From Escherichia phage megetsur: DNA of 42,132 nucleotides. The position numbers and the translations under genes were made by a program. The stretch lies in sequence record MN850608.1, one strand, 5' to 3'. Under the pieces are notes generated by a model. That model saw only the letters and a list, made by a program, of their open reading frames with translations, had not been told where the DNA came from and made no database searches. Position 1 is the stretch's first letter. Each line of letters opens with the position of its first letter. Positions 4,486 to 42,132 of the stretch are shown piece after piece.

Positions 4486-4639
4486 GCTGGCCGTAATCAA
4501 ATCACCCACCGGATTATTCTGGTGGGTTGTTAATAAACTCCAGCCGAATAAACCTTTGGCTGTACGTGATACAAAGTGGGAGGCCGAGAGTAAACTCGAA
4601 GACCTGCAACGTATAGTGCGTAATGTTATTCCGGCGTAG
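4469..4639 (+). CDS. hypothetical small basic protein (56 aa)
   Basis: ATG 4469 with GGAG 7 nt upstream. Confidence 0.35.
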   Translation: MQRDTKLAVIKSPTGLFWWVVNKLQPNKPLAVRDTKWEAESKLEDLQRIVRNVIPA

Positions 4640-4675
4640 TCATCTACTCATGCCTGTTATTATTTAGCAGGCATT

Positions 4676-4696
4676 ATGAAGGTGTCTATATTGGCC
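4676..4696 (+). promoter_or_regulatory. copy A of a conserved ATGAArGTGTCTATA element; candidate phage-RNAP promoter at the early/middle boundary
   Basis: ATGAAGGTGTCTATATTGG shares 15 of 16 positions with the element at 18857; sits directly after hairpin 4650-4676 and before the first middle gene. Confidence 0.35.
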
Positions 4697-4711
4697 AACG
4701 TGAGGTGAACT

Positions 4712-4915
4712 ATGTTCAAAGTAATATTGTTGTTCCTGCTTCTGGTTATTATTTGGGGAGCATTGTGGGTAGGTCTTGCATCACTGGTGCTTATCCCTGC
4801 TGTCGGTGGGTCAGCCACTTCAACACTGGGCACGCTGCTCGGTATGCTGGTGGGCTGGGGTCTGATGCAGTTGAGCCTGAGTGTAGGCCAGAGCCGGAGG
4901 TGGATTAAATGGTGA
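4712..4915 (+). CDS. small hydrophobic membrane protein (67 aa), holin-like topology
   Basis: ATG 4712 with GAGGTG upstream; two hydrophobic segments and a basic C-terminus RRWIKW. Confidence 0.5.
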   Translation: MFKVILLFLLLVIIWGALWVGLASLVLIPAVGGSATSTLGTLLGMLVGWGLMQLSLSVGQSRRWIKW

Positions 4916-5349: not shown

Positions 5350-6056
5350 TGAAATCAGTGAGCAACGACGAGTGGCCGGAGCTGGCGAAGCGTCTGCCTG
5401 TAGGACAAAAGCGAAGGACGTTTCACAGTTGCTCGCGGTCATTCAACAAGACCAACTTCGAGTACGGTCGTGCACCGGATTACATCTGGTGCAAGTGCCA
5501 CCGCTGCGGGTACAGCCGCAAGCATGACTTAACCCATGCTGTGTACGTGCCGCCAGCGGAGGTGCAAGTGAAGGTGCCAACGGATGTGGTGCCTATCACT
5601 GAGGTGATTGCCAAGCAGCCGCGCTTGCTGCTGCCAGTGCTGGAGCGGGAGAACCTGATGCCGCACCTGTCTATCCTGACTGCAAGCCCAACGTATGGCA
5701 GGCTGTATCTGCCGGACGACACGGGCAGCTACTGTGGTCTGGACTACACGGGCAGGCAGTTCATCCCGTGGCGCTCGCCGCACAAGCACAGCTTGGCAAT
5801 GAAGGTCAGCCCTCGCGGTAATGCTGAGACCAACTGCCTCTGGATTTATGGTGAGGTGGACGAGTATCTCCAGCAGGTACGCGACGGCGGCAACTGCGCG
5901 TTCGTTCCCAACGTGGACGACTCAACGTTGCAGGCGCTGGTCAGTGTGACGCTGGCGTATGGATACAACCTCGTGGTTATCTGCCACCACCCAAGTGCTC
6001 AGCGCATACGCCGGGAGCTGCGTGTCGTTGGGCGTGTGCAAATCGTAGGAGAGTGA
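5346..6056 (+). CDS. putative DNA primase-like zinc-binding protein
   Basis: Cys/His cluster (HSCSRSF...CKCHRCG) and position immediately upstream of the helicase, as in phiKMV-like genomes; no TOPRIM motif verified. Confidence 0.35.
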   Translation: MMKSVSNDEWPELAKRLPVGQKRRTFHSCSRSFNKTNFEYGRAPDYIWCKCHRCGYSRKHDLTHAVYVPPAEVQVKVPTDVVPITEVIAKQPRLLLPVLERENLMPHLSILTASPTYGRLYLPDDTGSYCGLDYTGRQFIPWRSPHKHSLAMKVSPRGNAETNCLWIYGEVDEYLQQVRDGGNCAFVPNVDDSTLQALVSVTLAYGYNLVVICHHPSAQRIRRELRVVGRVQIVGE

Positions 6057-6057
6057 T

Positions 6058-7323
6058 GTGCTTGACAAGCTGTTGTTAACGGTGATGCGCGAGCGCGGGA
6101 AGTATAACTCCCTGCGACACGCCATCCCGGAAGATACCATGAGCCAGACCACGGGCTATATGCTGCGTGCTTACGGCTCATACTTTGACGCGTTCCCGGA
6201 CAGTGACTTCATTGACATTGAGACACTGGGTACGCACGTTCGTTTAAAGACAGGCAGCACGCCTGAACAGATGGCGGCCTTTGATTCCCTGTGTGCTCAG
6301 CTCAAAGAGTATCAGCCCACGAAGGAACAGAAGGAAGGCATCCTTGACCAGCTCGTAGAGTTGGACACCGCTGGCCGTGCGAACCTGCTGATGCAGAGGT
6401 ACGACAATGGTGAAGAACTGGATATTATCTATGAGCTTGGCCGTCTGGCTGAGGGCGCACGCCGCAGTCGGGGCCAATCATCAGTTACCGATTACGTCGA
6501 TGACGATGTGGTTGACATTATTAATCGCACTGATGATGACCAAGGTTTTAAGTTCGGTCTCATGTGTCTGCAAGATAGCGTACGCGTACTGCTTCCCGGC
6601 GACTCCGTTGCAATCGCTGCCCGACCTGACAGTGGGAAGACCAGCTTCATCGCGTTTAACCTTACGCGAATGGCGGCGACAGCGGCGAAGCTGTATCCGG
6701 GCAGACCAATCCTGTGGTTCAACAACGAAGGGCAGGGCATCAACATCATCCCGCGCATCTATCAGGCGGCGCTCAACTGTACGCTCCCGGAACTGAAAGA
6801 GCTGGGTGAGGACAGGAGCAAGCTGCACGCTGCGTATGCCAAGGCACTGGGTGCGCCAGCCAATGTGATTCGTGTGAAGGATATGCACGGCGCGACGCTG
6901 GCAAAAGCTGAGCAGGTTATCGAAGCGATGAACCCGTGCATCGTGGTGTGGGATATGCTTGCCAACTTCAAGCTGTCTGTGTCTGACCCGTCGAGCAACA
7001 AGGCGAGTCAGGTTGAGCAGCTATGGCAGGAGGTACGTGAGCTGGCAGTGCGACACAACTTCGTGTCACTGGCTACGGTTCAGGTATCAGCCGATGGTGC
7101 CGACGATATGTTCCCGGCGCTTGACGCATTGAAGGATTCCAAGACTGGTATCCAAGGGGCGACTGATGTTATCGTGATGCTCGGCAGCGTGGATGACCCA
7201 TCGCTGGCGGCGCGGCGCGGTGTCAGTACGCCGAAGAACAAACGCCAGATTGCTGGGCGTCCAAGCAACGTGCGGTCACAGGTACACTTCTTTGCTGACC
7301 GCTGCCAATATGAGGATATGTAA
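6058..7323 (+). CDS. replicative DNA helicase (DnaB / T7 gp4 helicase-domain family)
   Basis: Walker A AARPDSGKTSF; 421 aa; GTG start with AGGAGAG upstream. Confidence 0.8.
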   Translation: MLDKLLLTVMRERGKYNSLRHAIPEDTMSQTTGYMLRAYGSYFDAFPDSDFIDIETLGTHVRLKTGSTPEQMAAFDSLCAQLKEYQPTKEQKEGILDQLVELDTAGRANLLMQRYDNGEELDIIYELGRLAEGARRSRGQSSVTDYVDDDVVDIINRTDDDQGFKFGLMCLQDSVRVLLPGDSVAIAARPDSGKTSFIAFNLTRMAATAAKLYPGRPILWFNNEGQGINIIPRIYQAALNCTLPELKELGEDRSKLHAAYAKALGAPANVIRVKDMHGATLAKAEQVIEAMNPCIVVWDMLANFKLSVSDPSSNKASQVEQLWQEVRELAVRHNFVSLATVQVSADGADDMFPALDALKDSKTGIQGATDVIVMLGSVDDPSLAARRGVSTPKNKRQIAGRPSNVRSQVHFFADRCQYEDM

Positions 7324-16395: not shown

Positions 16396-18828
16396 GTGGA
16401 TTTACTTGCAGAGCAGATTCGACTTGAAGAAGAAGCGCGAGCCAGACACCGCGAGGGCTGGCTGGATAATATCAAAGAGGCGATGGCCAGTGGCCGCGCC
16501 GGGTCGGTGCCGTTGCTCCAGCGTATGATGGTTGAGGCTTATCCTCTGGTCGAAGCTGCGATGCAAGAAACCCTGAGCGAAACGACCCGTGGATATGGTG
16601 CGCAGTACCGGACGTACATGCGTGAGATTGGCACCAAAGCGTGTGCCTCTCTCGCACTGAGCATGGCGGTGTCCGGTGCTGCGTCGGAGCAGGCGGTACT
16701 GAGTCTGCTCAAGAGCATGGGCAAGGCACTGATGGCTGAGGTGGTGTATCTCCGGGCGAAGCAGACCGGGCCACAGCAGGCGGCGTACATGGAGCGCGTT
16801 AAGCAGGACGTGAAGAAGTCTCGCTCGAAGTCAGCGAACCACGTCTACAACAAAGCGCGTGCGTCGGCGGCGAACGTTGGGGTAGAGATTGATGTGCTGC
16901 CGCAGCGTGCGCTGATTACCATTGGCAAGCTGATGATGAAGTGCGTCGAGCCAACTGGTCTGGTGTCCACGATTCGCGTCGGCGGCAACCAGCGCCAGCG
17001 CGGTACGGCACACTTCGCACTGCACGAAGATGTGCTGGCTACGATGAACGACTGGCTGGACATGCCGCGTGCTGATGGCATGTGCTGCCCACCGCTGATT
17101 ATCCCACCGAAGCAGATTGCCCCGAACGGTCGCAGCGGTATGTGGCATTCCGATGGGCAGGCAGCGATGTACCGGGTCATGAGTCGCATGAACCACAAAG
17201 GGTATCGTGCATTGAACGTTGACCCGACCCCCGTTATAGAGCCGTGTATGATGCTCAGCAGCGTTCCGTACCGAGTTAACCCAATGGTACTGGAGTTCCT
17301 GCGAACGAACCGTACAGGCGTTATGGGGCTGCCTGTGCCACCCCGTGAGCCTACACTTCCGTTCACCATCCCCGCTGGTGTGAGCTTTGCACAGTACATC
17401 AGCAAGTTCCCACCAGAGATGCAGCAGCAGATGGATGCCGAAGCTCACGAGTACAAGGTGAAGACTCGCTTGTATTACAATGAGTTGCGTAAGTTCACGT
17501 CGCAGATGCTGGCGTTGAATGGTGCAGTCAAAGAGGCAGACAGGTATGCGCAGTACGATAGGATTTATCTCCCGACTTACGCCGATACGCGGGGCCGAAT
17601 TTATTATTCTTCGACCCTTAACCCTCAGTCTATCGACGCGGTGCGAGCGCTGCTTGAGCTTGCGGAACCAGTGGCTCTCGGAACTGAGGGGCTGTTCTGG
17701 CTCAAGGTTCATGTTGCGAATTGTTTCGGATATGACGCAACAGACTTCGACGACCGGGCGGCGTGGACGGACAAGACACTCCCCCGACTACGTGAGGCGT
17801 GCCGTCTTCCAGAGGCATTTGATTCGTTCTGGTCAGAAGCCGATAGCCCTATCAGCGCGTGGGCTGCCTCTGTTGAACTCATTCGCGCTATCGACTCAGG
17901 AAGTCCTGAGACTTATCCCTGCCGAGTGGTTACGCAATGGGACGCTACCTGTTCAGGATTACAGCACCTCAGTGCGATGCTACGAGATGAAGTTGGCGGT
18001 GCTGCTGTCAATCTTATCAATAGCGTGGGAAGAAAAGCAGACATATATCTCAAGACGGCAGCAGCGGCGATGCAGGCTCTTGAAGATAGTGAGGCGCAGT
18101 CACCGACGCAGATGGGTACGTGGCTTGTTTCAATCGGCATTGTCCGGGCGATGGCTAAGAAGCCAGTGATGACCTACGTGTACGGGGCAACCCGGCACGG
18201 TATGGTGGACTACTACTGCCTGTATCTGCGAGAGAACCGGGTCAAGCTGCCGGACGGCAAGAGCCTGCTGGAGTGTGCGCAGTTCATCGCAGAGTTCATG
18301 TGGAATGCAATCCCTCGCGTTGTGCCGAAGGCGGCAGAGCTGATGGCATGGTTGCAGGCTATCGCGGTTGAGGCGGCAGCCAACGGCGAGTACGTGGAAA
18401 TCATTGCACCATCAGGGTTGCGGGTGGTTAACCTGTATCAAGCCAGCAAGGAGACGATGCTCAACAACATCAACCTCATGGGTATCCACAGCATTAAGCT
18501 GCGCGAGTATCTGGACAAGCCGGACGGTAGGAAGTGTGCCGCTGCGATTGCTCCGAATTTCGTACACGCCATGGATGCCAGCCACATGATGAAGGTGTTG
18601 TGGGAGATGTGGAATAACGGGGTGTACATGGTGTCCATCCACGACTCGTTCGGGGTGGCGGCTGCACATGCCGGGTTACTCCACAAGGTCATTCGTGAAA
18701 AGTTCGTACAGATGTATGAGCAACATGACCCAATTCAACAACTTGCTGTACGATACAATGCTGTTGCACCTGAACGGGGCAATCTGGATATCCAGCTTGT
18801 GAAACAATCAAGCAAGTTTTTCTGCTGA
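16396..18828 (+). CDS. single-subunit DNA-dependent RNA polymerase (T7-type)
   Basis: DATCSGLQHLSAMLRDEVGGAAVNL and HDSFGV match T7 RNAP catalytic motifs; GTG start with AAGGAG upstream. Confidence 0.95.
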   Translation: MDLLAEQIRLEEEARARHREGWLDNIKEAMASGRAGSVPLLQRMMVEAYPLVEAAMQETLSETTRGYGAQYRTYMREIGTKACASLALSMAVSGAASEQAVLSLLKSMGKALMAEVVYLRAKQTGPQQAAYMERVKQDVKKSRSKSANHVYNKARASAANVGVEIDVLPQRALITIGKLMMKCVEPTGLVSTIRVGGNQRQRGTAHFALHEDVLATMNDWLDMPRADGMCCPPLIIPPKQIAPNGRSGMWHSDGQAAMYRVMSRMNHKGYRALNVDPTPVIEPCMMLSSVPYRVNPMVLEFLRTNRTGVMGLPVPPREPTLPFTIPAGVSFAQYISKFPPEMQQQMDAEAHEYKVKTRLYYNELRKFTSQMLALNGAVKEADRYAQYDRIYLPTYADTRGRIYYSSTLNPQSIDAVRALLELAEPVALGTEGLFWLKVHVANCFGYDATDFDDRAAWTDKTLPRLREACRLPEAFDSFWSEADSPISAWAASVELIRAIDSGSPETYPCRVVTQWDATCSGLQHLSAMLRDEVGGAAVNLINSVGRKADIYLKTAAAAMQALEDSEAQSPTQMGTWLVSIGIVRAMAKKPVMTYVYGATRHGMVDYYCLYLRENRVKLPDGKSLLECAQFIAEFMWNAIPRVVPKAAELMAWLQAIAVEAAANGEYVEIIAPSGLRVVNLYQASKETMLNNINLMGIHSIKLREYLDKPDGRKCAAAIAPNFVHAMDASHMMKVLWEMWNNGVYMVSIHDSFGVAAAHAGLLHKVIREKFVQMYEQHDPIQQLAVRYNAVAPERGNLDIQLVKQSSKFFC

Positions 18829-18854
18829 TAAATAGTGATATGTATCATTGACTT

Positions 18855-18877
18855 AAATGAAAGTGTCTATAGTGATA
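18855..18877 (+). promoter_or_regulatory. copy B of the conserved element ATGAAAGTGTCTATAGTGATA; candidate phage-RNAP promoter ahead of the late genes
   Basis: Exact 21-mer also present inverted at 40536-40556; contains CTATAG; followed by palindrome GTGATA-GA-TATCAC (18872-18885). Confidence 0.4.
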
Positions 18878-18938
18878 GATATCACGCTACCGGTAGCCCC
18901 GTCAGTGGCGGGGGTTGCTGCCACTAAGAGAGGATTGT

Positions 18939-19124
18939 ATGGGTAAAGAATCTCCACTTGAAAGAGTTCAGTTCACTAAAGCACAGTTAGCTCTACTGGA
19001 GAAGCACTTCGGTACATGGTCTCAGGTAGGTAAGACAGTCACTCCCGACACTAACCTACCTCTGATTAACAGAGAGGCTGGTAAGCAAGACGTTCTGGAT
19101 TTCATCAGAGAAAGAGTGATTTGA
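18939..19124 (+). CDS. hypothetical protein (61 aa)
   Basis: ATG 18939 with AGAGAGGA upstream. Confidence 0.45.
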   Translation: MGKESPLERVQFTKAQLALLEKHFGTWSQVGKTVTPDTNLPLINREAGKQDVLDFIRERVI

Positions 19125-19125
19125 A

Positions 19126-19545
19126 ATGAAAGTGTCTACTATGGGAAATACATCACACACGACGATGCCACTCGACATTCGCCGTGCTGTGGCCGAAGGC
19201 ATTCAAGCTGAGCGGCCATGGTCAGACCTATCTCCCGATGTGATTGTTGACAGCATGTATGAGGCCACCGCCTCCGGTTGCGTTGACGTTTACATCACTG
19301 ACGATGACGGCAGCCTAATGGCTGTTGCTCACATCGGCAGGTTATTCGATATTCATGTGGGCGAGATGGTGGTCGTTATGGCCTCATACGTCTGGCCCCA
19401 GTACAGAAACCGTGGAGTGATGCGTGCCATCCTCCGTGTACTCAAAGACGTGGCCCGTTCAGCGGGTGTGCGTTGGTGCGGTTACTCCCATATGGTGCGG
19501 CCTTACGTTCAGGAGTACCGCTTCATTGATTTGGAGAAACCGTAA
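19126..19545 (+). CDS. hypothetical protein, possibly GNAT-like acetyltransferase
   Basis: Degenerate acetyl-CoA-binding-like motif WPQYRNRGVMRAIL; its first 15 nt repeat the promoter-like element. Confidence 0.35.
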   Translation: MKVSTMGNTSHTTMPLDIRRAVAEGIQAERPWSDLSPDVIVDSMYEATASGCVDVYITDDDGSLMAVAHIGRLFDIHVGEMVVVMASYVWPQYRNRGVMRAILRVLKDVARSAGVRWCGYSHMVRPYVQEYRFIDLEKP

Positions 19546-19807: not shown

Positions 19808-21373
19808 ATGACTCAAGACGCGCAGAACGTCAGCTATGAGTCTCTGTGGCAGAAGTACCGGGATAGCAACGTTGTCACGAAAGCGCGGGAGTACAGCCGC
19901 TACACACTGGCTAAGCTGGTGAGCGAGTACGACCGCAGTGACGTGGACGACATGAACCGCCAGCAGATTACTCGTGATTACCAGTCTGTCGGCGCTCTGC
20001 TCGTCAACAACCTGACCGCTCGGTTGGGTGAGTTCCTGTTCCCGGCTTCCGCACGATTCGTGAAGCTGAAATTAAACAAGGTGTCTGACCAACAGCGGCA
20101 GTCTATGTCGCAAGTGAATCAGGCGCTTATCACTATTGAGAAGGCCATCGTAGACAAAGCCAAAGAGAATGGCGGCTACGCTGACCTGCTCCAGTGCATT
20201 GCCCAACAAGCTGTGACCGGAAACGCCGCGCTGTACCGCGATATGGAAACTGGTTCGTACCGAGTGTACGGATTGGAATCCTTCGTGGTGCAGCGCGACG
20301 GTCGTGGCGTTGTGGTGGATGCTATTATCAAGGAGCGCATCCAGTGGGATTCTCTGCCGAAGGACTTTCAGAATGAGCTGAACTCCAAAGGCTTCCGCTG
20401 TGGTGGGAACAAACGCGTGTGGCTGTACACCCGCGTCCTTCGCGTTCAGAAGGACAGTGGCAATTACGGCTATGAAGTAACGCAGCAGATTGGCAACTAC
20501 CAAGGCTGCGTCTATACCCCCGGTAAAGATTACTACCCTGAAAAAGTCTGCCCATGGTTATTCCCAGTGTGGTCTTTGAAGTCTGGCGAGCATTACGGTC
20601 GCGGGATTGTCGAAGACCACGCTGGGGATTTCGCACGTCTGTCGCTCCTGTCTGAGCATTCTGCTCTGTACATGCAGGAAGCGCTGCGCGTGCTGTGGAT
20701 GCTCACTGGCTCTGGCGGCAACGTCGATGACATTGAGAGCGCAGAGACTGGGCAGGTCATTCCACTCCAGAACGGCACCACGTTGTCGGGGCTGGAGGTC
20801 GGGGATTACCAGAAAGTTCAACAGGCCCGTGACGAAATCAACCAGATTGTGCAGCGACTGGCGCAAGCCTTCATGTACACTGGTGAGTTCCGTGACTCCG
20901 AACGTACCACCGCCACCGAAGTGCAGCAGGTAGCAACCAGCGCCGAGCGTGGGCTGGGTGGGCCGTACTCAATGCAGGCTAAGACCCTCCAGATTCCTCT
21001 GGCGTATGTCCTGCTCGCGGAGATTGACGAGTCCACCGTACCAGATATCGTCGGCAACATCCTGTCGCTTCAAGTCGAAGCTGGCTTGGATGCCCTCGGT
21101 CGAAGCATTGAAGCTGAGACGCTTATCAGAGCGCTCTCCGACTCGCAGGCAGCAATGGTTGCTGTCCAGAATATTAATGGCGTTGCTAACACCATCGACC
21201 CTCAGAAAGTCCTTGAGGTTATCTTTGCCTCCAATGGTGTTGCGCTGGACGACTATCGTAAGTCGCCACAAGACTTGGCCCAAGAAGGTCAGGCCATCGA
21301 CAATGCAGCCGCTGCCGCCGCTGGCGTACAGCCGGGCGCAGTTGATGTAGCGCCTAACATCGCACAGATTTAA
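19808..21373 (+). CDS. head-tail connector (portal) protein
   Basis: 521 aa, first large gene of the structural module, followed by scaffold and capsid as in T7 gp8-gp9-gp10. Confidence 0.75.
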   Translation: MTQDAQNVSYESLWQKYRDSNVVTKAREYSRYTLAKLVSEYDRSDVDDMNRQQITRDYQSVGALLVNNLTARLGEFLFPASARFVKLKLNKVSDQQRQSMSQVNQALITIEKAIVDKAKENGGYADLLQCIAQQAVTGNAALYRDMETGSYRVYGLESFVVQRDGRGVVVDAIIKERIQWDSLPKDFQNELNSKGFRCGGNKRVWLYTRVLRVQKDSGNYGYEVTQQIGNYQGCVYTPGKDYYPEKVCPWLFPVWSLKSGEHYGRGIVEDHAGDFARLSLLSEHSALYMQEALRVLWMLTGSGGNVDDIESAETGQVIPLQNGTTLSGLEVGDYQKVQQARDEINQIVQRLAQAFMYTGEFRDSERTTATEVQQVATSAERGLGGPYSMQAKTLQIPLAYVLLAEIDESTVPDIVGNILSLQVEAGLDALGRSIEAETLIRALSDSQAAMVAVQNINGVANTIDPQKVLEVIFASNGVALDDYRKSPQDLAQEGQAIDNAAAAAAGVQPGAVDVAPNIAQI

Positions 21374-39406: not shown

Positions 39407-39942
39407 TGACTAACTTTGAAATCTGTATGCGGTTCACCGGGCTGGCAGAAGGTGGTTACACCAAGCTGCCCGGCGATACCGGAGGGGAAACGAATCATGG
39501 AATTAGCGACGCTCGTGATGGCAAACTGGATGGCAGAGCTTGTGGTGTCCCTACTGGGCTTGGCGGTACTATTTGCGTGCCTATCAAAGCCCTCACCAAA
39601 GCACAAGCCGAAGCAATCTATCGACGGGATTACTACGCCCCCATCCGAGGTGACGAGCTTCACCCTGCGATTGCATGTGCCGTGTTTGACTACGGTGTCA
39701 ACTCCGGTGTCTCCCGTGCGGCGAAAGCTCTACAGCGGGTATGCGGCGTTGCACAAGACGGGATTGTTGGCCCTGCTACCGTGGCAGCAGCCAAACGTCT
39801 GGAACCTCACTCCGCAGCAGCAGCCATCTGTGACCTTCGTATTGCGTTCCTAAAGGCTTCTACAGCCCCGACAGTGGTTCGCTATAGGGATGCCTTGGTT
39901 GCTCGTGCAAAACGCTGTAGCGCTTACTGTGCGACGCTGTAG
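39406..39942 (+). CDS. endolysin, glycoside hydrolase family 108-like catalytic domain with C-terminal peptidoglycan-binding domain
   Basis: LAEGGYTKLPGDTGGETNHGIS resembles the GH108 signature; C-terminal region resembles PG_binding_3; no N-terminal SAR/TM segment. Confidence 0.7.
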   Translation: MTNFEICMRFTGLAEGGYTKLPGDTGGETNHGISDARDGKLDGRACGVPTGLGGTICVPIKALTKAQAEAIYRRDYYAPIRGDELHPAIACAVFDYGVNSGVSRAAKALQRVCGVAQDGIVGPATVAAAKRLEPHSAAAAICDLRIAFLKASTAPTVVRYRDALVARAKRCSAYCATL

Positions 39943-40059
39943 GGGTATCCAAAAGCTGACGCAATGAACAGGCCGTGGGTGCAATACCCCGGCTTGAAAA
40001 TTGCACGTTTATGCTTGCCCCTCCCTCGACCCAAATGACCGCGCGTGCCCCCATAGCGT

Positions 40060-40530
40060 GTGCGCGGATTAGCCTCGCGACGTGCGCGATATTTGCTCGC
40101 GTGCGCTGCGCGGCGCGTCAAGAGGATTGCCTGCGTGCGGTATAGCTCGTGCGTGTCGCGTTTCATCGTCTGCCGTGTGGCGTGCTGTGCGCTGTCCTGC
40201 TGGCTGTGCTGTGCGGTGCTGTCCTATGGGGACGCTCTGCGCTGGCTGTGCGGTGCTGCGTGCTGCGCTCGGTCGGGCGGGTATCTGTCTCTTTTGCTCG
40301 CAAGCTCTGCGCCGTGGTGGTGCTGTGTGGTGGCGGTGGTGCTGCCGTGGTGCTGTCCTGTCTGCTGGCCTACTGTCTGCGCCGCCAGCTCTGCGCGTCA
40401 TGCTCTGCTACTGTGTCACCTGTCCTACTGCGTTCACTGGCTGCCGCCTGTCATCCTGTCGGATTCCATCCGTTGCCGTTCCGCGCTCGCTTGTTTCGGC
40501 TGCGCCGCGCTCGCTCTGCGTATCTAGCGA
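40060..40530 (+). repeat. strand-skewed G/T-rich low-complexity tract (A-poor on + strand)
   Basis: Reiterated GCTGTG, GTGGTG, CTGCGC units; three + frames and one - frame stay open, which is composition-driven and not coding. Confidence 0.7.
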
Positions 40531-40535
40531 TACTA

Positions 40536-40556
40536 TATCACTATAGACACTTTCAT
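40536..40556 (-). promoter_or_regulatory. copy D (inverted) of the 21-bp element ATGAAAGTGTCTATAGTGATA
   Basis: Exact reverse complement of 18857-18877; flank similarity extends to about 50 bp; the + strand here reads TCACTATAG, identical to T7 promoter positions -8 to +1. Confidence 0.4.
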
Positions 40557-40562
40557 AATTAT

Positions 40563-40583
40563 CTAATGATTACAGTAACTTAT
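40563..40583 (+). repeat. 21-bp direct repeat, copy 1 (CTAATGATTACAGTAACTTAT)
   Basis: Exact second copy at 40642-40662; contains palindromic core TTACAGTAA. Confidence 0.85.
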
Positions 40584-40641
40584 GACCTATCTGATAACGG
40601 TATTCTATCCAGTGTTGTGATTATCCAATCAAACTTTAATC

Positions 40642-40662
40642 CTAATGATTACAGTAACTTAT
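40642..40662 (+). repeat. 21-bp direct repeat, copy 2
   Basis: Identical to 40563-40583, 79 bp downstream. Confidence 0.85.
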
Positions 40663-40683
40663 CACTTTTCTTGAAAATAATAC

Positions 40684-40713
40684 TTGCAAACTGTTTTGGT
40701 TATGTGCTGTAAT
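40684..40713 (+). promoter_or_regulatory. sigma70-type promoter P0 (TTGCAA-N18-TGcTGTAAT)
   Basis: -35 TTGCAA at 40684-40689, extended -10 TGCTGTAAT at 40705-40713. Confidence 0.5.
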
Positions 40714-40785
40714 TCATCACGTCTAAAGGCACTAGCCCAGTAGACACAGACAGACGGTAGCATCGCTCTTTAACAATCTGGTGTG

Positions 40786-40814
40786 TTGACAAGGCAAGCT
40801 CACTATGCTGTAAT
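40786..40814 (+). promoter_or_regulatory. sigma70-type early promoter P1 (TTGACA-N17-TGcTGTAAT)
   Basis: Consensus -35 TTGACA, 17-nt spacer, extended -10 TGCTGTAAT. Confidence 0.6.
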
Positions 40815-40922
40815 GCTTCCAGTCAGCCAGACAAGCCAAATAGTGATGGATAAACACGTTAACACCCGCGTAGGCTAACTGGTACGGTTTAATTAACTCA
40901 GAACGGGCGCTGATTAAATCGG

Positions 40923-40951
40923 TTGACAGGATGAAACGAGTATGCTGTAAT
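40923..40951 (+). promoter_or_regulatory. sigma70-type early promoter P2 (TTGACA-N17-TGcTGTAAT)
   Basis: Same architecture as P1. Confidence 0.6.
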
Positions 40952-41002
40952 ACACACCAGATTGACAGGGCAGCAAGCCAGTCAGTCAGAAGTAAAAAGT
41001 AG

Positions 41003-41031
41003 TTGACACGCTGAATACGATGTGATGTAAT
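41003..41031 (+). promoter_or_regulatory. sigma70-type early promoter P3 (TTGACA-N17-TGaTGTAAT)
   Basis: Same architecture as P1 and P2. Confidence 0.6.
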
Positions 41032-41039
41032 CAGCACCG

Positions 41040-41463
41040 AGTTGAAAGGTTGCAAAACAACCTGCTCTGAGTGAACGTAAACAGGCCACGTAGTGTCTCG
41101 GCCTCATGGGTATCCGGCGCAGCTAGGAACTGGTGAGGGCACCGCCGAAAGGCAATAGGGGTAGCGCCCGGTGCGATGGGAACGGAGAAGCGCGATAGAC
41201 GCAGCGCAGTATCAGCACAATCCCGAACGTCTTATAAGGCGCGGAGTGAAGCGGGTAGGTAGGCAAGCTGGAAACGGTGAGCCGGACTGCTGGAGGACTC
41301 CTGAGAGTGGATGCAGACAATATCCACGGCGCGAAATGGGCGGGGCGATTTTTCAGGGTAGTGAATCCGACAAGCCAATCAATGCCAACGAGTGCAGACT
41401 GTACGGCGCGTCACAATGGGTTCACTATCCACCTGAAAATAGCCAACAACTGGAGAAATAACT
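41040..41463 (+). other. long purine-rich non-coding leader between the early promoters and the first early gene
   Basis: About 420 nt with no RBS-preceded ORF; G/A-rich on the + strand; small hairpin GGTTG-CAAAA-CAACC at 41043-41057. Confidence 0.5.
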
Positions 41464-41853
41464 ATGTACCGTATCTATGCAAGCGCATATCGTCCGAATA
41501 ACGCTGAATGTGTTAATCTGGCGCTTCATTGCAAGGCACTGCGAACGGTGCAGGATATGTTCGGAGTGATTCCGGTCACGCTGACAGGCAAGTTCGACAA
41601 TCAGTATGAGTTGAGCATGGTATTTCCTGTCGATGGAATCTACGAAATCAGGAAGGCGGTATCGCTTTTCTGTAAGGTTCTTGAACAGGACTGCATCATG
41701 GTAGTGACCAAAGATGATGATGCAATCTTCATGGATTCACCGTATCCGGGCAAGCCTGCTGGCAAGCTGGTCAGCAAAACAGGCGAGCAGATGGAAGCCG
41801 GGCAGCATACCGCTTGGACTTATGACGGTGAACTGTTTTGGGTAGTGGAGTAA
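41464..41853 (+). CDS. hypothetical early protein (129 aa), first gene after the promoter cluster
   Basis: ATG 41464 with GGAG 9 nt upstream. Confidence 0.55.
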   Translation: MYRIYASAYRPNNAECVNLALHCKALRTVQDMFGVIPVTLTGKFDNQYELSMVFPVDGIYEIRKAVSLFCKVLEQDCIMVVTKDDDAIFMDSPYPGKPAGKLVSKTGEQMEAGQHTAWTYDGELFWVVE

Positions 41854-42000
41854 GGGGAATGACTATGTTCACTGCACTGTGTGTTATAGCGGCGGCCTGC
41901 TGGGTCATTGACCAGCGCCTGAGCCGTCGCCGTGGCTGATAGCCTATAGCGTCTTGCGAGGCGCTATGTGAAATCAACCAACCTGACAAGGGGTAACATC

Positions 42001-42132
42001 ATGACTACTGCAATCAAATACACCAGCTTCAAAGACGCTGCCGCTCTGGACAAGGCTATTGAGTCTACCGTCAAGAAGGCGCACTCACTCCGTAACGAGA
42101 TTCAGAACGTTGCGGTCGGTATCATCCTGCAC
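42001..42132 (+). CDS. hypothetical early protein, 3'-truncated at the window edge
   Basis: ATG 42001 with AAGGGG upstream; frame open to the end of the window. Confidence 0.4.
   Translation, partial: MTTAIKYTSFKDAAALDKAIESTVKKAHSLRNEIQNVAVGIILH

Follow-up and report, generated by a model that had tools for sequence, protein, structure and literature searches.

What purpose, if any, is served by two identical 21-bp sequences that stand in the same orientation ahead of the early genes of Escherichia phage megetsur (sequence record MN850608.1, analysed as a whole stretch of 42,132 nucleotides, hereafter the window)? The two copies of CTAATGATTACAGTAACTTAT, which we call R box 1 (40563–40583) and R box 2 (40642–40662), are exact matches on the + strand and lie 79 bp apart from start to start, as the original prediction had stated. 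They appear to be a selected, sequence-specific cis element of the non-coding control region preceding the early genes, because they are conserved, constrained in their spacing, unique in their location and matched by homologues in another genus. It is hence reasonable to suppose that a protein binds them in the service of early transcription or replication. This keeps the part of the original prediction that proposed a binding site for a regulator or host factor on a conserved cis element, while the dimeric regulator seated on a palindrome finds no support. To judge from their conservation in relatives, the boxes are probably protein-binding control sites, and the reading that we favour, with a probability of about 0.4, is that they are sequence-specific architectural or activator sites, possibly resembling those of the integration host factor (IHF), which would serve the two divergent promoters flanking them.

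Within the window, the boxes stand alone. No further copy of CTAATGATTACAGTAACTTAT with up to three mismatches is found on either strand, none being expected in shuffled sequences, and a weight matrix built from all box variants retrieves no third copy in the window, in J8-65 or in Lidtsur. Both boxes are included in a sharply bounded AT-rich island of ~190 bp (40530–40720; 27–29% GC in the composition profile), with 56–69% GC on its left and a promoter region of 44–47% GC on its right. According to a nearest-neighbour stability scan, the least stable 150-bp segment of the genome is 40534–40683, with a value of −1.128 against a genome mean of −1.483 (standard deviation 0.056), i.e., about six standard deviations below. 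As a single strand, the island shows nothing special in the way of a hairpin or cruciform (z −0.11), and Rfam gives no credible match to a known RNA family in 39900–42132. What matters most in this context is that a leftward copy of a predicted phage-polymerase promoter directly adjoins box 1 and that nowhere in the genome is the duplex less stable than in this unit as a whole. More generally, the four least stable 150-bp segments (40534–40683, 18732–18881, 4604–4753 and 19006–19155) coincide with four promoter-like sites.

The region 40000–41500 is matched by 19 phage records, all of them Bonnellvirus or close relatives (including J8-65, the Danish “-sur” coliphages, Kc261, RZ4 and ROV85), and the box region was aligned across 19 genomes. 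Box 2 is recognisable in all of them and both boxes in 16, box 1 being degenerate in the J8-65 clade. The repeats are thus kept in close relatives, a check proposed with the original prediction, and their spacing is held: from one box start to the next there are 79, 80 or 81 bp in 19/19 genomes, across four types of spacer sequence and several indels. Within the core group, each box reaches a mean pairwise identity of 0.93, as compared with 0.86 in the spacer, 0.79 in P0 (the first of four sigma70-like early promoters) and 0.72 between box 2 and the −35 of this promoter. The distances to the promoters are also fixed. Box 2 ends 21 bp before the −35 of P0 in the window and genomes of its type and 31–32 bp before it in other lineages, a difference of one helical turn, while the gap between box 1 and the leftward promoter element is 6 bp in the window and 4–7 bp in every lineage, including LIMEzero and the IMG/VR relatives L059 and L061.

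Outside the genus, the box core recurs in the islands of LIMEzero (genus Waewaevirus), L059, L061 and the divergent relative UViG 2228664000, always on the + strand, except that L059 also gives a weak hit on the minus strand. LIMEzero has TCAATCAATACATACACTTAC in place of box 1, 6 bp from its own leftward promoter copy, with 15 consecutive bases identical to Lidtsur box 2, and its counterpart of box 2, which is degenerate, stands 31 bp from the −35 of an annotated host promoter. In UViG 2228664000, both boxes carry ..ACATACACTTAG and have therefore changed in the same way. Over 17 box variants, the invariant positions are C11 A12 and A16 C17 T18 T19, while A20 is found in 16 of the 17. Three box-like sequences can be seen in L059 between 635 and 776 (ATACATACACTTAG at 635, ATACATGTGTTAG at 684 and ATACATACACTTGT at 763), the last two being 79 bp apart; the middle one was picked by eye and falls under the matrix threshold. 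Finally, an exact 18-mer search of IMG/VR returned one true relative and seven chance hits in coding sequences.

Such conservation might be deceptive if the boxes were functionless, i.e., the relic of a local duplication of ~30–45 bp, possibly derived from a promoter and kept alike by gene conversion, which would appear conserved only since the whole control region is. The similarity between the two copies does extend past 21 bp and decays into the flanks, with 27 identical bases out of 30 (40563–40592 vs. 40642–40671), and the presence of ACTTTCAT or ACTTTAAT upstream of each box suggests an older and larger duplication, while the excess of conservation over the spacer (0.93 vs. 0.86) is modest. 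Yet between genomes with an overall identity of ~80%, the 21-mer is unchanged or almost so when its flanks have fully diverged, the spacing stays at 79–81 bp despite several indels, and the boxes are recognisable across genera; a relic thus looks quite unlikely to us. One variant of this idea would turn the boxes into cryptic leftward sigma70 promoters: the reverse complement of the box holds CTGTAAT, the −10 motif of P0–P2, five of the six CTGTAAT heptamers of the genome fall in 40569–40951, and box 1 offers TTATCA 17 bp upstream of a minus-strand TGTAAT, in an arrangement conserved within the core group. However, the −10-like hexamer varies (TGTATT, TGGAAT, TCTATT), and in the lineages with 32 bp between box 2 and the −35 of P0, a −35 for box 2 is not conserved. 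As a conserved pair of −35 and −10 hexamers spaced by 16–18 bp is thus lacking and a consensus scan reports nothing, leftward sigma70 promoters were rejected.

The boxes were also said to lie upstream of the early promoters, and four sigma70-like promoters do follow on their right. P0 (40684–40713, + strand), read from the sequence as TTGCAA, an 18-bp spacer and TGcTGTAAT, is conserved in all relatives, and the homologous segment of LIMEzero is annotated as a putative host promoter. P1–P3 (40786–40814, 40923–40951 and 41003–41031, all on the + strand), seen in the sequence and as direct-repeat family D2, each combine TTGACA, a 17-bp spacer and TGnTGTAAT. Among the four, P0 has the weakest −35 and −10, with TTGCAA, a spacer of 18 bp and a G as the second base of the −10. 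Directly upstream of its −35, an A/T tract (TGAAAATAATAC, 40672–40683, + strand), nearly invariant across Bonnellvirus, resembles a UP element. All four promoters use TGnTGTAAT, with a G where sigma70 −10 hexamers almost always have an A, and none of them was reported by the consensus promoter scan, presumably because it requires that A; the annotated host promoters of LIMEzero likewise use TGTAAT.

Two identical sites near promoters, each with short palindromes (TAATGATTA and TTACAGTAA), may evoke operators, on which a dimeric repressor of the phage or of the host would sit at the palindromic core and shut off early transcription, and an operator-like arrangement had indeed been put forward. 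The 9-bp palindrome TTACAGTAA is present in both boxes, but it is unremarkable, since 17% of random 21-mers with the composition of the island hold a palindrome with 4-bp arms (P = 0.17) and its symmetry is lost in natural variants: out of four arm pairs, none is kept in ATACATACA, one in TTACATACA and two in TATCAGTAA, the whole set of variants retaining 0–3. A functional dyad was ruled out on these two counts, and 9-bp dyads are in any case shorter than usual dimer sites. Moreover, the boxes miss the core promoters, box 2 ending 21 bp (up to 32 bp in relatives) before the −35 of P0, hence without overlap with either its −35 or its −10, and box 1 lying 4–7 bp upstream of the phage promoter element. 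P1–P3 have no box at all; early transcription could therefore not be stopped through box operators. As no repressor-like gene product and no helix-turn-helix or other DNA-binding domain was detected among the early proteins with Pfam and PHROGs, the operator-like arrangement finds no support, and we regard operators as very unlikely.

On the other side of the island, the neighbour of box 1 is a predicted phage promoter on the minus strand (40536–40556; ATGAAAGTGTCTATAGTGATA, or TATCACTATAGACACTTTCAT as read on the + strand), an inverted copy of 18857–18877. The latter, on the + strand and the exact inverse of TATCACTATAGACACTTTCAT, lies within the 110 bp that separate the late genes from the RNA polymerase gene. 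Two more predicted copies on the + strand are found at 4676–4693 (with two mismatches), in an intergenic position after a hairpin and before the replication genes, and at 19126–19143, at the start of the second late gene; the copies at 4676 and 18857 have no R box. The underlying motif ATGAAAGTGTCTATAGTG occurs at 4676(+), 18857(+), 19126(+) and 40556(−), where 0.02 matches are expected by chance, and each of these four positions is occupied by a genome-specific variant in J8-65 and Lidtsur. The left-end copy varies in concert with the post-polymerase copy of its own genome (GACAC in the window; GTCAC in glasur, RZ4 and ROV85; GTAGC in Kc261), up to a divergent IMG/VR relative in which both share a different 22-mer. 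The LIMEzero record annotates 7294–7313, which follows an annotated terminator, and 20330–20349 as “putative phage specific promoter”, and these are the positional equivalents of 4676 and 18857; an unannotated minus-strand copy at 637 marks the boundary of its own AT-rich island. The TATCACTATAGACACTTTCAT/ATGAAAGTGTCTATAGTG element is thus most likely a phage promoter. Because the copies at 4676 and 18857 sit ahead of gene blocks in the rightward direction, and in line with the LIMEzero annotation, the left-end copy is predicted to point leftward, to the terminal repeat, though all genes run rightward.

It is this element, and not a copy of the box, that the loci at 40563 and 18841 share, in the form of the adjoining 21-bp sequence TATCACTATAGACACTTTCAT. 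The original prediction had seen a degenerate inverted version of the box at 18841–18851. The sequence TGTATCATTGA is there, but its resemblance to the box is not significant: aligned with the 45 bases upstream of the 18857 element, the reverse-complemented box region scores 13, against 12.2 ± 2.3 for shuffles (p = 0.37), and of 11 genomes subjected to this test, 10 give no significant score. A third box copy at that place was ruled out by these shuffle tests in 11 genomes together with the weight-matrix scan. The exception is Kc261 (L021), the only genome where the sequence upstream of the post-polymerase promoter resembles the reverse-complemented box 1 region (score 24 vs. 12.1 ± 2.3, p = 0.002), which may be due to gene conversion between its two promoter loci. 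We also considered the boxes as a second class of phage promoter, ATGA and GTAACT blocks recurring in the J8-65 promoter, and rejected it owing to a 3-base difference in length and to the lack of co-variation between the boxes and each genome's own promoter.

If the boxes are architectural or activator sites, a DNA-bending or architectural factor, most plausibly encoded by the host, would bind both of them; it might be IHF itself, or a partner of the IHF-like site found between the boxes. The bound island would fold into a defined nucleoprotein complex, which would assist opening and polymerase recruitment at P0, with box 2 located at about −58 to −78 of that promoter, and would also modulate the leftward phage promoter adjoining box 1. 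In favour of this reading are the fixed distances from boxes to promoters, the constrained spacing between the boxes, the indel of one helical turn and the weakness of P0.

A possible role for IHF is suggested by several features of the island. Between the boxes, an IHF-like core (AATCAAACTTTAA, 40627–40639, + strand) has a single mismatch to the IHF consensus WATCAANNNNTTR, and the homologous site is the perfect consensus AATCAAATATTTA in the glasur-type genomes, J8-65, smaasur and Lidtsur. Perfect consensus sites occur at different places of the islands, as AATCAAATATTTA in Bonnellvirus and as WATCAATGACTTA in LIMEzero and L061, when by our estimate from island base composition one is expected in such an island ~4% of the time. 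The existence of two independent perfect sites suggests that IHF binding has been selected there. Concerning the boxes themselves, a weak lead is that their invariant positions are in register with 6.6 of the nine specified positions of WATCAANNNNTTR (column-shuffle P = 0.039). The RZ4-type variant of box 1 has one mismatch to the consensus and the second boxes of LIMEzero and L061 have none, their cores (TATCAATGACTTAG at 704–717 in LIMEzero, L055 in our set, and AATCAATGACTTAC at 1243–1256 in L061) holding perfect matches to WATCAANNNNTTR. As for a phage-encoded binder, no DNA-binding or Rep family was detected by Pfam in 26 early, middle and first late proteins, eight of them also searched against PHROGs (a novel fold being possible), and this candidate was set aside; the lack of a detected DNA-binding domain in the early phage proteins favours a host factor.

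A number of observations weigh against architectural or activator sites. The boxes of the window depart from the IHF consensus at three of its nine specified positions, which is why we do not file them as IHF sites and why a standard scan would not call them, and the register test is marginal (P = 0.039). Fourteen host-factor consensus patterns (Fis, CRP, DnaA, LexA, ArcA, Fur, Lrp, OmpR, CpxR, TyrR, PhoP, NarL, MetR and FNR), gave no convincing hit inside the boxes, the only Fis-like hit sitting over the UP/−35 region. Outside the genus, the number and spacing of the boxes vary, the detected pair being 34 bp apart in LIMEzero and L061 and 128 bp apart in L059. Since box 1 is degenerate in the J8-65 clade and the box 2 homologue in LIMEzero, one good box may suffice, which would fit a position-flexible role, such as in an origin, better than strict promoter-proximal activation. 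In addition, the conservation of the boxes exceeds just modestly that of their equally non-coding neighbours, the helical-turn argument depends on essentially one indel event, and the papers found on Bonnellvirus or J8-65 have nothing on this region.

A replication origin is the main rival to a service rendered to the promoters. The island would then be the DNA-unwinding element, and the R boxes, along with IHF, would position its opening or the loading of helicase-primase, while divergent transcription from the leftward phage promoter and P0–P3 would drive negative supercoils into the easiest-melting DNA; the whole would be a relative of the T7 secondary origin at phiOL and of the T7 primary origin. 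In favour of this rival, the island is the stability minimum of the genome, at ~6 standard deviations, a phage promoter copy adjoins it, and it is located between divergent transcription units. Likewise, every lineage keeps at least one good box despite varying positions, which suits a position-tolerant function. Against this, an unwinding element requires AT-richness rather than a conserved sequence, and T7-like replication needs no sequence-specific initiator, none being recognisable among the early proteins.

The comparison with T7 itself cuts both ways. Its left end, said to have been described by Dunn & Studier in 1983, is reported to consist of the terminal repeat, short repeats, phiOL, an AT-rich segment and the promoters A1–A3, an order that is mirrored here (terminal repeat, short GC-rich repeats, phage promoter, AT-rich segment, host promoters), with in both cases a phage promoter beside an AT-rich segment right before a battery of strong host promoters. 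In the primary origin of T7, the tandem promoters phi1.1A and phi1.1B are followed by an AT-rich region, and the two boxes are similarly tandem elements ~75–80 bp apart. At a T7-type origin, the phage promoter has the AT-rich segment on its downstream side, so that its transcript enters that segment, whereas the left-end copy here is directed leftward, away from the island and into GC-rich DNA. That promoter is moreover a predicted one, on the basis of four positionally conserved copies, the LIMEzero annotation and the co-variation of copies within a genome. Nor do the R boxes fit the consensus of the phage promoter, and to our knowledge no such boxes have been described for T7.

The original prediction had further called the arrangement iteron-like, and direct repeats of ~21 bp in or beside AT-rich, meltable DNA with IHF sites do recall the iteron origins of pSC101, R6K gamma and P1 oriR. 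Iterons, however, are tandem arrays of at least three copies with a period of ~22 bp (~20–23 bp as looked for here), accompanied by a cognate Rep gene and usually by DnaA boxes. The window has just two copies, at a distance of 79 bp from each other and hence in no tandem array, no Rep-like gene was detected among the proteins scanned, and no DnaA box with up to one mismatch is present; of an iteron unwinding region, the AT-rich minimum and IHF-like sites are there. An iteron array is accordingly not supported. Taking these points together, we consider an origin possible but unlikely; a packaging signal, dimer operators, cryptic leftward promoters and a duplication relic are all less likely than either an origin or sites serving the two promoters.

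Where the boxes stand with respect to the genome ends bears on one more explanation. The record of J8-65 annotates terminal repeats of 259 bp and starts with TCGACCC, and the homologue of that start falls at ~40027 in the window, 84 bp past the stop codon of the endolysin gene. By homology to J8-65, the physical left end is thus predicted near 40027, and the window is therefore, on sequence grounds, a circularly permuted version of a Bonnellvirus genome that is linear with direct terminal repeats, from the J8-65/LIMEzero lineage of T7-like phages. That the window is a rotated circular representation is confirmed by the second early gene (PHROG 1448, also found in LIMEzero), whose sequence runs over the ends of the window (42002–42132 and 1–380). 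In T7-like phages, the left end is the first DNA to enter the cell. The boxes are ~537–636 bp from the predicted left end, outside the ~259-bp terminal repeat inferred from J8-65.

Given their vicinity to a genome end, the boxes might be a signal for packaging or end processing, either as the target of the small terminase subunit or as a mark for the approach to the left-end cut, by analogy with PacB/PacC of T7 or with the R sites and IHF site of lambda cosB. The T7 terminase recognises specific Pac sequences (PMC9860248). In addition, a phage promoter directed into the terminal repeat could couple transcription to the processing of the junction. For T7, a coupling of this kind has been proposed. 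Lambda cosB (R3-I1-R2-R1) likewise has repeated boxes in the vicinity of a genome end and, between them, an IHF site, to which an IHF-like site corresponds here. Unlike our boxes, however, cosB is beside the cut site and binds the small terminase subunit, whereas the R boxes are located more than 500 bp from the predicted cut site, outside the terminal repeat, hence neither at the cut nor in the concatemer junction, where terminase sites are found. No copy exists near the right end or elsewhere, and the distances of the boxes are fixed relative to the promoters and not to the end, the GC-rich segment from the end to box 1 varying in length among relatives. A packaging signal is, in our opinion, highly improbable.

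Other features of the left end can be mentioned at this point. The GC-rich leading-end segment 40060–40520 has almost no A on the + strand (AT skew down to −0.83) and many short repeats made of G, T and C; its near-absence of A means that no palindromic restriction site containing A or T is possible. We speculate that a leading end so poor in restriction sites would suit a phage that opens its gene order with an anti-restriction SAM lyase. At 40281–40299, close to where the terminal repeat is predicted to have its inner boundary, TATCTGTCTCTTTTGCTCG resembles ATCTGTT, which we take to be the class II pause signal of the T7 concatemer junction, a signal for which a 7-base motif is confirmed to exist; TTTGCTCG occurs at 40092 and 40293 in the window, and in J8-65 ATCTATCTTTTTTCG is located 12 bp beyond the annotated terminal repeat.

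The explanations could also be combined. It is rather doubtful, though conceivable, that the boxes, the IHF-like sites, the leftward phage promoter and the most meltable DNA of the genome make up one composite switch for origin function and/or the processing of concatemer ends. Such an element would be similar to phiOL of T7 with an inverted promoter polarity, would depend on the boxes, which T7 origins do not, and would be conserved in at least two genera of phiKMV-like enterobacterial phages.

Returning to architectural or activator sites between divergent promoters, the closest parallels that we see are in systems where IHF assists a promoter. In phage Mu, the operators O1–O3, with an IHF site, lie between Pe and Pc, and bending by IHF stimulates the early promoter; there as here, repeated boxes and an IHF (here IHF-like) site stand between divergent promoters at the start of the early region. 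Yet Mu is temperate, and its operators are bound by a known phage repressor and extend over the promoters, whereas our strictly lytic phage has no recognisable repressor gene, its boxes are upstream of both promoters and one of these is a phage-polymerase promoter. The upstream regions of ilvPG, lambda pL and rrnB P1, which depend on IHF or Fis, are similarly AT-rich, with architectural sites at about −60 to −150 that aid the promoter; at ilvPG, binding of IHF moves duplex destabilisation to the −10. Compared to them, the R boxes are IHF-like (three mismatches here), no Fis consensus lies within them, and their binder is putative. By analogy, the arrangement would work most like IHF-assisted control between divergent promoters (Pe/Pc of Mu) or like the upstream activating regions of ilvPG and lambda pL. 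The arrangement fails the tests that were made of what defines an iteron origin, a dimer operator, a T7-type origin or a pac/cos site, and we therefore file the boxes under none of these classes.

Two further observations concern the early region as a whole. Between the last early promoter and the first gene (the SAM lyase, Pfam PF23780) extends an untranslated leader of ~430 nt (41030–41463), 96% identical to that of J8-65, which folds moderately better than shuffled sequences (z −2.05) and has no credible Rfam match. Moreover, a family of 45-nt repeats (..GGCAATCATGCCTTAAC.., at 1020–1064, 1428–1472, 2030–2074 and 5508–5552) occupies early intergenic gaps, past hairpins and just ahead of start codons.

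A repeated box upstream of phage early promoters is by itself an ordinary kind of feature, and what we describe is a real, conserved and previously unannotated cis element of that kind, from a phage genus that has received little study; the leftward phage promoter copy beside the boxes and an island of such exceptional meltability are more unusual than the boxes themselves. Hardly any work has been devoted to replication origins, to the control of early promoters or to end processing in phiKMV-like and Bonnellvirus phages. A compact and conserved module of ~190 bp is now defined at the leading end of the genome, comprising the two boxes, the IHF-like site between them, the phage promoter that faces backward and the first host promoter. 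If the boxes do recruit a host factor, phage engineers would gain a defined element to keep or to modify, and part of the dependence of the phage on its host in the first minutes would be explained.

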